Assembly: GCA_964016885.1 (NCBI GenBank)
Contig: OZ024743.1
Location: forward strand, 147,498,001 to 147,562,000
DNA length: 64,000 bases
Reading direction: 5' to 3'
Origin: Eledone cirrhosa
Taxonomy: Eukaryota
The translations under genes were made by a program, and so were the position numbers. Of this stretch, positions 10,108-59,895 are shown piece after piece. The notes beneath the pieces were generated by a model. It ran no database searches. It was not told the DNA's origin and was given only the letters and a program-made list of their open reading frames with translations. Each line of letters starts with the position of its first letter. The first letter of the stretch is position 1.

Positions 10108-10146
10108 GTTGCTGACGATAGCTAATAAGCTTGAAACTAGTACAGC
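10108..10146 (+). ncRNA. Type I hammerhead ribozyme
   Basis: GTTG-CTGACGA-T-AGC-taataa-GCT-T-GAAA-CTAG-TA^CAGC. Confidence 0.85.
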
Positions 10147-10524
10147 TTCCTTTGTCAGTGTTGAACAAACGATCAACGATGGTTGCTGGACACTACGGCT
10201 TAATACGGGATGTTTGTTTACAAACACACCGAGCATTATAATAAATGTTCGGTGAATCCATACGTACATATATATATGTGTGCATGTATGTATATATATA
10301 TACATACTACTGTACGTCTGTATACATATACGTATGTACGTGTACATACTTATATTTAAGTAACAGCCGTACTAAGAGTGGGAAATGAAATTTCGTTTCA
10401 TTTTTTCCGTTTATCGTTTTCGGTGCACCCGGCCGATTAACCCACTCGATATGCAAATTTGGCTACTCAGCCGTTAATATGCATAAGGTAAGTATATACG
10501 TTCAACAATCTGGCAGGAAGGTGT

Positions 10525-10567
10525 ACGTTGCTGACGATAGCTAATAAGCTTGAAACTAGTACAGCGT
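10525..10567 (+). ncRNA. Type I hammerhead ribozyme
   Basis: ACGTTG-CTGACGA-TAGCtaataaGCTT-GAAA-CTAG-TA^CAGCGT; helix I extends via GTTCAAC..CTGGCA / TGTCAG..GTTGAAC. Confidence 0.88.
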
Positions 10568-11134
10568 TCCTTTGTCAGTGTTGAACAAACGAGCAACGAT
10601 GGTTGCTGGACACTACGGCTTAATACGGGATGTTTGTTTACAAACACACCGAGCATTATAATAAATGTTCGGTGAATCCATACGTACATATATATATGTG
10701 TGCATGTATGTATATATATATATATACATACTACTGTCCGTCTGTATACATATACGTATGTACGTGTACATACTTATATTTAAGTAACAGCCGTACTAAG
10801 AGTGGGAAATGAAATTTCGTTTCATTTTTTCCGTTTACACACACACATATATATATATATATATATATATATATATATATATATATATATATATAAACTG
10901 CTACTATAGTTCATAGTAACAGTCCGGCTGCTGTCTTCTTAACAAACCACTCTTCACTGATTGACCTCGATGTCACATGATTGATTCTTTTGAATTTGCC
11001 ACCGACGCAGTAGGCAATGATTTTTTCACTGGCTCGGAACTTAGTCCACGCTTTGCTTTTTTCCATCCGGTGAATTATTTTTGTATAAGTTCCCTGTGTC
11101 CACGTATTGCCTGGAAACTTAGCTGAGAATAGAC

Positions 11135-11213
11135 TTCCCTGATGATGAAAGGCTTCTCCGTACGTTTCTTCGGAAACTACGTTTATTCCCTTTCAGAAAC
11201 TAATTAGTTGGAG
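11135..11213 (+). ncRNA. Type I hammerhead ribozyme, long stem II
   Basis: TTCC-CTGATGA-TGAAAGG[36 nt]CCTTTCA-GAAA-CTAATTAG-TT^GGAG. Confidence 0.87.
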
Positions 11214-11610
11214 TGAAATTTTAGTAAGTAAGTTAATTTTTATAATTTTCTAATTTTACGTCTCTCATATATATATATATATACATATATATATATATAT
11301 ATATATATATATATATATATATATATATATATATATATATATATATATATGTATATATATATATATATATAAACTGCTACTATAGTTCATAGTAACAGTC
11401 CGGCTGCTGTCTTCTTAACAAACCACTCTTCACTGATTGACCTCGATGTCACATGATTGATTCTTTTGAATTTGCCACCGACGCAGTAGGCAATGATTTT
11501 TTCACTGGCTCGGAACTTAGTCCACGCTTTGCTTTTTTCCATCCGGTGAATTATTTTTGTATAAGTTCCCTGTGTCCACGTATTGCCTGGAAACTTAGCT
11601 GAGAATAGAC

Positions 11611-11689
11611 TTCCCTGATGATGAAAGGCTTCTCCGTACGTTTCTTCGGAAACTACGTTTATTCCCTTTCAGAAACTAATTAGTTGGAG
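11611..11689 (+). ncRNA. Type I hammerhead ribozyme (duplicate of 11135)
   Basis: Identical motif in the second duplicated unit. Confidence 0.87.
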
Positions 11690-57348: not shown

Positions 57349-57538
57349 GGGCGGTGAATTGGCAGTATCAGTAGAGGGTTGGACGCCATGCTTTCTATCT
57401 CAGTTACGTCCCTTTACGGTCCGAGTTCAAATCCCGCCGAGGTTAACTTTGCCTTTCATCCTTACGAGGTCGATAAAATAAAGTACCAGTAATGTACTGG
57501 GTAATTGCTGGCCTTGTGCCTAAAGTAGAAACAATTAT
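57349..57538 (+). mobile_element. tRNA-derived SINE with 15 bp TSD
   Basis: ATTATTTCTTCATAA at 57334-57348 and 57534-57548; the empty site is visible in the opposite arm (~56672). Confidence 0.95.
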
Positions 57539-57976
57539 TTCTTCATAAATATGTTTTAAACTTATAGCCACGTTTAAATGATTTTTTTGTGTGGTTTATT
57601 TATGTTGATTGGGAGAAGAAATACTATATATATTTTATCTAATGATTCTATGGACTTATTCTTTATATATTGCTCTGATTGCTAATTATTTATTTAATTA
57701 ATTCGTCATTGAGCTATACCGTCAATGGTTGCCAAAAATATACATATATCTATTGCTCTGTCTAGTTTTGTGTATATACCCTTTAAATTTTATATATATA
57801 TATATATATATATATATATATATATATATATAAGTATTGAAGTTTCCGTTGAAAATTGAAAAAGTCATAGGAATGAAGAGTACTCTATGTAAGTACCAGT
57901 ACCGTCTTAACGGCATTCCTGTCTTAACGACATCACAACTTTCTCCGCTTGGCCTGTTCCCTCCCTTTTGGAACTG

Positions 57977-58012
57977 TCCCCCGTTGATGGGCGTGAGCCC
58001 GAAATATTGGGA
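57977..58012 (+). ncRNA. Degenerate minimal hammerhead-like motif
   Basis: TCCC-CCGTTGA-T-GGGCgtgaGCCC-GAAA-TA-TT^GGGA; two core substitutions. Confidence 0.45.
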
Positions 58013-58240
58013 TTAAATCTCCACTACGGTAACCCTTCTCCCTTTGTTTTGTTTTCATCTTTGTCTCTCTCAATTTTCACTTTCACCTGTTTTTCCTATC
58101 TATCTTTCACTTCCTACCTCGAGATTTCCCTCTGCATTGTTGTGGCTTTCTTAACTACGTATTTTATATATATATATATATATAGAGAGAGAGGGAGTGA
58201 ATAGATATACAATTTAGCTTCAGTCATATTTGCATACACA

Positions 58241-58678
58241 TATGTATTGGAATTTCGGAATTTCAGAATAAATATGATATGCTTAAAATAAACATTTAGA
58301 GAGCCGTAGCTATGCCAAAACACCAGCGACTAACGTCGTCCGGCGGTGTACACCAGAAGCAAAGGGGACAATCTTGGATGCATATTTCGAACTGAACTGG
58401 TTCTCATATACAAATGAGATTAATCACCTCATTTACACAGACGCGAAAACCATATATTCTCGCCTGTTTTCAAAGTCTAGCTGTTCCAAGAGTAGGAGGG
58501 ACCGTGCTTATGAGAACCAGTTCAGTTCGAAATGCGCATCCACGATCGCCCCCCTTGCTTCTGCTCAACACTGCCAGACGACGTCAGTCACTCGTGTTTT
58601 GGCATAGCCGCTACGGGTCTCTAAATGTTTATTTTAAATATACCGTATTTCTTCTGAAATACGAAATTCTAATGCATA
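58241..58678. repeat. ~165 bp-arm diverged inverted repeat with ~100 bp spacer
   Basis: ...TTTCGAACTGAACTGGTTCTCATA pairs with TATGAGAACCAGTTCAGTTCGAAA... Confidence 0.9.
58503..58544 (+). ncRNA. Type I hammerhead with G5U substitution (probably inactive)
   Basis: CGTG-CTTATGA-GAACcagttcaGTTC-GAAA-TGCGCA-TC^CACG. Confidence 0.75.
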
Positions 58679-58747
58679 CATACATACATACATATATATA
58701 TATATATATATATATATATATATATATATATATATATATATATTTAC

Positions 58748-59895
58748 ATATACATAAACTAGACAGAGCCATATATATATATATATTTATATATATATAC
58801 ATATATATATATATATATATATATATATATATATATATATATATATATATATATATGTGTGTGTGTGTTTTTGGCAACCATTCACGGTGTGGCTCAATGA
58901 CGAATTAATTAATTAAATAATCAACAATCAGAGCAATATACAAGAAAGTATGTCCATAGAATCATTTGATAAAATATATACATTATTTCCTCTCCCAATC
59001 AGCATAATCAACCACACAAAAAATCAATTAAACAAGGCTATACGTTTAAAAAGCATCTATGAAGAAACAATAGATAAATAAACGATAGCTATTTTATCCG
59101 CGATCAACAGCCACAGAATATTTACCCAATATTTCTAATAGCCCGTGGAAATCGATTAGATATATAGCCAACCATACACAATTAGGGACAAAATCAAAGT
59201 TGGAAGAAAAAATCTATATAAGCATACCAAAATTATGTCTCTACCTCATCAGGTTTCATTCGCTTTTTGGAAATATCCGAGCAAGGTTAAATTCAGGAGT
59301 TTCGAAATCATCAGGAAACAAACTCAATTGGACAAAGATTTTTCTTCAATGATCCCCGCCAGAAACGTATTCAAAATGGCTAAGAACTGTGACGTGGCTA
59401 GTGGTCAAGTCAGAAAGTTTGTGATTGGTGCCTTACGGCGAGTGGGCTGGCTGCTAGAAAGCGCAGCCGAATATTGCCTAAATTGTTTCTCAACCATATG
59501 GGATATTATAAAATATATAGATTTAGATATACATAAATTAGACAGAGCAATATACATTTGATAAAATATATACAGTCTTTCCTCTCGCAATCAGCACAAT
59601 CAAACAATGCTTATATACATTTTTTCTTCTAACTTTAACTTTGTACCTAATTGTGTATGGTTGTCTATATATCTAATCGATTTCCACGGGCTATTAGAAA
59701 TATTGGGTAAATATTCTGTGGCTGTTGACCGCGGATAAAATAGCTATCGTTTATTTATCTATTGTTTCTTCATAGATGCTTTTTAAACTTATAGCCTTGT
59801 TTAATTGATTTTTTGTGTTGTTGATTATGCTGATTGGGAGAGGAAATACTGTATTTATTTTATCAAATGATTCTATGGACATACTTTCTTGTATA
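58748..59895. mobile_element. Diverged relative of the 56559 element, again with an inverted arm (59606-59895)
   Basis: Colinear similarity to 56559-57090 and 57540-57775; TAGACAGAGC terminus repeated at ~58760 and ~59539. Confidence 0.88.
59236..59320 (-). ncRNA. Type I hammerhead ribozyme
   Basis: Minus strand: TGTTTC-CTGATGA-TTTCG[..]CGAAT-GAAA-CCTgatgAGG-TA^GAGACA. Confidence 0.93.

Follow-up and report, generated by a model that had tools for sequence, protein, structure and literature searches.

U·U is the commonest form closing stem II of hammerhead motifs in the genome of Eledone cirrhosa

Hammerhead ribozyme motifs normally close stem II with the pair G10.1–C11.1. In the genome of Eledone cirrhosa the commonest closing form is instead an apposition of two uridines, U10.1·U11.1. 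The motifs were analysed in a stretch of 64,000 nucleotides (nt) of contig OZ024743.1 (positions 147,498,001 to 147,562,000, forward strand, assembly GCA_964016885.1), called here the window, in loci from the rest of the genome, and in metagenome relatives. They are type I hammerhead motifs borne at the termini of Penelope-like elements (PLEs) of the Hydra clade and of tandem retrozyme-like repeats. Both the U·U variant and the clade in which it occurs are already known; what is new is its scale, the mapping of its switches and, possibly, a family in which it is joined by a change in the catalytic core. On balance the apposition is probably a tolerated closing mismatch in ribozymes whose weak, palindromic helix III already restrains them and which would cut as dimers or with the help of a protein.

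The window contains ten cores of this type in five families, A to E, in each of which C(T/A)GANGA is followed, and GAAA preceded, by T, where 200 shuffles of 2-base blocks gave a mean of 0.08 and a maximum of 1 (Table 1). U·U replaces the consensus pair in all ten. The T...T strings quoted in the initial annotation of the window are all present, and the positions 56854 and 59236 given there are the low ends of two minus-strand family E motifs. The same annotation had read T–A at 11139 and 31977; both readings are borne out, with partners at 11615 and 31876 respectively. CUGANGA followed by GAAA is found in eight of the ten U·U cores, the remaining two, both of family D, reading CAGAAGA. An alternative register, an extra U with a shifted stem, was ruled out: the stems pair only from 10.2–11.2 onward. 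Under a descriptor demanding stems I and III together with a UH cleavage site, seven of the ten cores are complete type I hammerheads. The other three are damaged copies: in 52918 the motif is cut at C3 and lacks the 5' strand of stem I, in 54727 stem I is broken, and in 52224 GAAA is followed by an additional A. The same descriptor finds 14 complete motifs in the window and none in the reversed window; across 153 loci and the window together it finds 281, of which 98 are distinct, against none in the reversed sequences. Other closing states are present in the window, namely G–C (cores 47343/47239 and 34285) and A·A (core 14106).

Two variations of the core were seen alongside these. A U3–A8 covariant occurs in a G–C family (window 34282–34317, plus strand) and also in a U·U family whose stems II and III are long (L062:7465 and 8032, minus strand; L074:445, plus strand). 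Complete hammerheads closed by A·A form at least two repeated families (window 14058–14114, minus strand; L215:1932; L217:2714 and 5567; L247:4464).

Table 1. Hammerhead motifs and other features of the window (U positions are those of 10.1 and 11.1)
Feature	Position	Strand	Core	Remarks
Family A type I hammerhead	10108..10146	+	10112	U10.1 at 10119, U11.1 at 10132; 4-bp stem II; palindromic CTAG helix III; predicted cleavage after 10142
Family A hammerhead, second tandem copy, 419 nt further	10525..10567	+	10531	U at 10538, 10551
Family A hammerhead, third copy	27942..27980	+	27946	U at 27953, 27966
Family A tandem unit, non-coding, retrozyme-like	9956..10686	+		Copies 97% alike over 312 nt
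Family B hammerhead, cut at C3, without stem I 5' strand	52918..52956	+	52918	U at 52925, 52936
Family C hammerhead	55296..55335	+	55301	2-bp stem II; U at 55308, 55318; palindromic CAATTG helix III
Family C hammerhead, inverted partner, broken stem I	54693..54732	-	54727	U at 54720, 54710
Frame spanning inverted junction of family C insertion	54898..55278	-		C-terminal half made up of the last part of a PLE GIY-YIG endonuclease
Family D hammerhead, U4A and U·U	55773..55821	+	55777	A at 55778; U at 55784, 55796; within pseudo-LTR fragment 55686-55868
Family D hammerhead, inverted partner, extra A after GAAA	52180..52229	-	52224	Within pseudo-LTR fragment 52070-52289
Family E hammerhead	56854..56938	-	56932	50-nt stem II region; U at 56925, 56876; 6-bp stem I
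Family E hammerhead, second copy	59236..59320	-	59314	U at 59307, 59258
U–A-closed hammerhead, for comparison	11135..11213	+		Second copy at 11615; relatives carry C·A
U–A-closed hammerhead, for comparison	31970..32031	+		Inverted partner -31876
G–C-closed hammerhead, for comparison	47197..47243	-		Inverted partner +47343
SINE-like repeat copies, among others	4196-4376, 7920-8107, 15092-15487, 22710-22900, 41141-41327, 50147-50337, 57354-57540, 60014-60200			

The variant extends far beyond the window. In the genome of 3.0 Gb, where each count was paired with a control, the U·U pattern CTGANGA-T-N5-33-T-GAAAC has 96,296 matches (control 1,627), an enrichment which upholds the proposal that the families share a variant core. 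The corresponding pattern for G...C has 16,005 (789) and that for an extra base with G...C 16,940 (667). T opposite a base other than T gives 16,456 matches (3,108), the reverse arrangement 22,553 (7,033), and any pair of bases 208,037 (43,659). After subtraction of the controls U·U accounts for about 94,700 of 164,400 CTGA..GAAAC cores, or 58%, a share that is approximate in both directions because the patterns, which ignore pairing, omit U·U families (D and E) as well as A–U and G–C families which continue GAAAT. The high copy number of U·U stems from the expansion of a small set of families, and the copies are not independent choices of this state.

Some standard models overlook these motifs. 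The Rfam hammerhead model at its gathering score has no match in the window, G–C cores included, and in E-value mode the 150 matches listed of 339 were driven by microsatellites and contained no hammerhead. A strict minimal descriptor fits none of the 14 window cores tested, and the filter of Perreault 2011 (PMC3088659) discards every mispair at 10.1–11.1. The claim that standard descriptors would miss the variant therefore stands for these three; it fails for the descriptor of Cervera and de la Pena 2014 (PMC4209133), which permits an extra N10 and N11. Censuses that demand a 10.1–11.1 pair, or that rely on Rfam models, can overlook more than 100,000 motifs in one genome.

Judged by their protein sequences, families B, C and D are the ends of Hydra-clade PLEs, of which a DKT motif (in place of DKG) and a CxCX5C linker are the marks given by Craig 2021 (PMC8557442). 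DKT is found in 41 of 56 protein rows, some of them fragments, and DKG in none; the linker reads CxCX5C in 50 of the 56 and CX2-5CxxC in four. Families B and D have both marks, whilst the family C fragment has the linker and stops short of the DKT position. A further character, the lack of a CCHH cysteine pair between GIY and YIG, gave a mixed picture: in that interval C has no cysteine, D one and B two, most metagenome rows having none. The family B motif lies about 40 nt before a frame encoding reverse transcriptase (RT) and endonuclease (EN) in 12 of 20 loci, five of them with a fully open frame of 758 amino acids (aa); the match of this frame to PF01541 (E 2e-4) falls just under the cut-off, and Pfam returned nothing useful on five partial frames. 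In family C, whose coding sequence was encountered solely as 3' parts, the motif follows the end of RT-EN by about 210–280 nt in four loci (L271, L274, L279 and L298). For family E, 30 loci of 3.5 kb contained no RT that belongs to the family. Two assignments were rejected as nested insertions, that of family B to the RT of locus L059 and that of a G–C family marked by GTTGT to the RT of L057.

Nesting is also apparent in the window itself, where two family D motifs in inverted orientation enclose the cut copy of family B together with the inverted pair of family C (52070–55868), and across the genome PLE pieces are inserted in one another's AT/TA tracts. Hydra-clade PLEs are very abundant and young: overlapping sets comprise 36,153, 18,716 and 47,141 first-look candidates, and open frames 758 or 821 aa in length are numerous.

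Families A and F, the latter found outside the window, are of a different kind. Both consist of non-coding tandem units of a few hundred nt with one hammerhead per unit, and they are best classed as putative non-LTR (long terminal repeat) retrozyme-like repeats, A being a predicted tandem retrozyme. The spacing is 419 nt for A in the window, and arrays of 310 nt and of 480–500 nt occur elsewhere, the longer period in L061. In family F, units closed by U·U and by A–U are 98.6% alike and both build long arrays, whilst a G–C array with a family-A-like flank reaches 17 units in one 10-kb stretch. Since sister arrays amplify with G–C or A–U too, the effect of U·U as against G–C is probably small. 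A link of family A with the RT of L058 was ruled out, as that RT has its own A–U hammerhead. Near-identical tandem arrays (310 nt with U·U or A–U; 466 nt with G–C) flip strand midway in L060, L061, L130–L143 and L244. Hairpin-like blocks 3' of the ribozyme are common to families A, F, K and the G–C array, and at window 3440–3700 (plus strand) and L063:3690–3960 (minus strand) lies a relative of the F/K retrozyme group which has decayed and whose core is degenerate.

Family D departs further from the consensus. Replacement of U4 by A is harmful to the hammerhead. Here it accompanies U·U in a family whose pattern has 28,133 matches in the genome (control 3). Among the first 100 of these listed, 94 read CAGA, with A at position 4, and 96 read T...T; of the six rows with CTGA, four coincide in part with a CAGA copy in the opposite strand and thus arise at head-to-head junctions. 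A full element is present in locus L211, with an open reading frame at 2624–4733 (645 aa open), hammerheads at 2427 and 5686, and pseudo-LTRs of 245 nt that are 98.8% identical; its 3' end lies within a TA run, and TA loose ends were seen. A deep-coverage sequencing run, which may be the source of the assembly, gave no difference of 10% or more at the family D core positions among the rows listed; two further organisms, with 6 and 13 records at low depth, were left out of the evidence. U4A is the family state of a young, autonomous PLE. U4 belongs to the hammerhead consensus core (Perreault 2011, PMC3088659), and U4A is absent from all RT-linked metagenome motifs. No paper reporting U4A or CAGA in Penelope elements was found, although Lunse 2017, bioRxiv supplements or figures may already cover it. 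It is tempting to speculate that Hydra-clade elements adjust the strength of their ribozymes through the base of stem II, family D having gone furthest, its ribozyme being either near-silent, with the fold acting as a protein-binding signal, or rescued by the element's own protein; we put this forward tentatively. If it were true, family D would amount to an experiment of nature, on the scale of a genome, on whether Penelope hammerheads need to cut at all.

Relatives in other hosts allow the history of the closing position to be followed. A single-protein query of metagenomes gave no relatives, whilst an alignment of 40 proteins used as query gave 77 loci, 52 of which hold a complete hammerhead (three in the reversed control). 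The hammerhead lies within 450 nt of the reading frame in 49 loci: 18 are closed by U·U, 18 by G–C, five by G·U and four by A–U, and four are mixed or other. For the tree six near-identical rows, all G–C, were removed from these and seven Eledone cirrhosa rows added, giving 50 rows (quick LG+G4 tree, unrooted, on which gain and loss of U·U are not distinguishable). U·U against all other states requires 10 changes, compared with a mean of 16.2 in 1,000 shuffles, one of which reached 10, and a clade restricted to U·U is rejected (approximately unbiased test, p-AU 3e-54). Over short ranges the U·U state is passed on by descent, and it frequently switches with G–C, G·U, A–U, U–A and C·A. CUGANGA, GAAA, the UH site and the C3–G8/U3–A8 covariation are meanwhile kept across proteins merely 35–50% alike. 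In the metagenome set (L310–L386) the pair following the closing pair is U–A in 13 of 13 distinct G–C motifs, and 11.1 is a pyrimidine in every RT-linked locus but one.

That U·U was undescribed is not borne out. File S2 of Craig 2021 (PMC8557442) lists U...U for 14 of 25 Hydra-clade families, two of which share one motif, the others having G–C, G·U, U·C or A–U; the annotation had itself named such documentation as half of what would speak against it. The passages of that paper on these motifs call them canonical, leave U·U uncommented and speak of a "small number" of families. Its Hydra-clade PLEs share with families B, C and D the type I motif, short (TA)n-inserting elements with a C-terminal EN, and both protein marks. 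They differ in scale, with about 95,000 net copies here besides those of the U4A family, and the listed rows contain no CAGA. In axolotl, the HHR_Amex2 family (Cervera and de la Pena 2020, PMC7229834) has U·U at the base of helix II in about 60,000 copies, yields circular RNA and, as a monomer, cleaves 22% in 1 h compared with 6% for a sister family, dimers cleaving much more. With its short tandem repeats and 2-bp helix III it is the nearest counterpart of families A and F, yet it is one vertebrate family in which cleavage was assayed, whereas the window alone holds at least five families known from sequence. The minimal PLE hammerheads of Cervera 2014 (PMC4209133) resemble the present ones in their pseudo-LTR location, palindromic 15.2–16.2 region, inverted pairs and U3–A8 variants. 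G10.1–C11.1 is described there as highly conserved in PLE motifs, although two of 56 rows of Fig. S3 (Hydra and D. willistoni) read U...U in the text layer, in which the GAAA column is displaced. The consensus given there, one extra base with G10.1–C11.1 and little or no helix III, makes up about 10% of net cores in Eledone cirrhosa. In Perreault 2011 (PMC3088659) a natural U10.1–U11.1, from phage PaP3, is among the active core variants, and U·U is given, citing Ruffner 1990, as the most active 10.1–11.1 mispair; a rare surprise in that survey, it is the majority state here and in the Hydra clade. Our literature search found no paper with mutant data for G10.1/C11.1, though Lunse 2017 could already cover U·U, and the text passages of Roberts 2023 give no 10.1/11.1 value.

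The reading that we favour as probable is that U·U is tolerated. With a weak and palindromic helix III, cutting would take place chiefly as dimers in tandem transcripts or with the help of the element's protein, and selection on speed at 10.1/11.1 would be weak because the ribozymes act mainly in these ways. The position may then drift by single steps through U11.1, from G–C to G·U and on to U·U or A–U, U·U persisting as the best-tolerated mispair. Weak helix III is known to attenuate monomers of PLE hammerheads (Cervera 2014, PMC4209133), and the poorly populated monomer folds of the window agree with restraint by this helix. Several observations nevertheless weigh against this reading. Those same folds, poorly predicted (P(2.1–1.1) at most 0.35 for the window copies), count on the other side too. 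The strong phylogenetic signal means that inheritance accounts for much of the sharing of U·U. On the own-genome tree families B, C and D, together with the U–A family J, occupy one side of a branch (SH 89), a grouping that fits inheritance plus one change; the branch is not kept in the larger tree and is left open in a careful one, and the family J row is a 146-aa piece tied to its hammerhead by adjacency only. Finally, U·U is six times commoner than G–C and is accompanied by a shorter stem II (mean 3.6 pairs beyond the closing pair, compared with 5.5 for G–C; 18 and 13 loci), which could reflect selection for a weaker ribozyme.

Such selection is the substance of the strongest rival, which we regard as unlikely: U·U would slow cutting, so that uncut tandem RNA lasts as a template for internally primed reverse transcription, with some cleavage kept. 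The role of Penelope hammerheads is still debated (Craig 2021; Frangieh 2024), and in the anole PLE studied by Frangieh 2024 the hammerhead is protein-assisted, insertion by catalytic mutants is normal and, in vitro, RNA that has not been cut serves as the main substrate. The dominance of U·U families in copy number and the shorter stem II that goes with U·U would suit attenuation, as would the success of family D despite its added U4A. The axolotl monomer points the other way, its U·U form cutting more than the sister family, although helix III confounds the comparison. Tandem families A and F, which are thought to depend on cleavage, have U·U all the same, and their sister arrays amplify with G–C or A–U. 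Lineages without U·U are equally young and abundant, the query with an A–U family alone giving 36,153 RT candidates, many with 821-aa open frames. Monomers are, furthermore, already held back by helix III, as noted above. The idea is cheap to test, for the genome supplies matched natural pairs (the U·U and A–U units of family F, and the U·U and G–C arrays with related flanks) as well as intact autonomous elements with U·U by itself (B) or with U4A in addition (D).

It is still less probable that catalysis is largely dispensable, the motif being kept as a fold bound by the element's protein, in which erosion of 10.1/11.1, and of U4 in family D, would go unchecked. This proposal draws mainly on the fixation of U4A in a young autonomous family and on the many closing states found side by side; cleavage is unneeded in vitro in the work of Frangieh 2024, and Naiads spread without canonical hammerheads (Craig 2021, PMC8557442). 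It sits badly with the retention of both boxes, the UH site and the 3–8 covariation across distant proteins, with the complete motifs in 52 of 77 distant loci, and with the confinement of U4A, which no RT-linked metagenome motif shares. A mutational origin, in which CpG decay at C11.1–G12 and AT pressure turn G–C into U·U in dead copies, is highly improbable: the genome is AT-rich and G–C families do contain G...T decay copies, but U·U occurs in intact, young open-frame elements of families B and D, is near-constant in the family D rows listed, would need a second, non-CpG change, often neighbours C–G stem pairs and is found likewise in other hosts.

Two further repeats were noted in the window. 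A broken non-LTR retrotransposon with pieces of an AP-endonuclease and an RT, recognised by eye from the translations, occupies 4717–7564 on the plus strand. A SINE-like (short interspersed element) repeat of 190 nt is present in at least 14 copies which are 76–95% alike.

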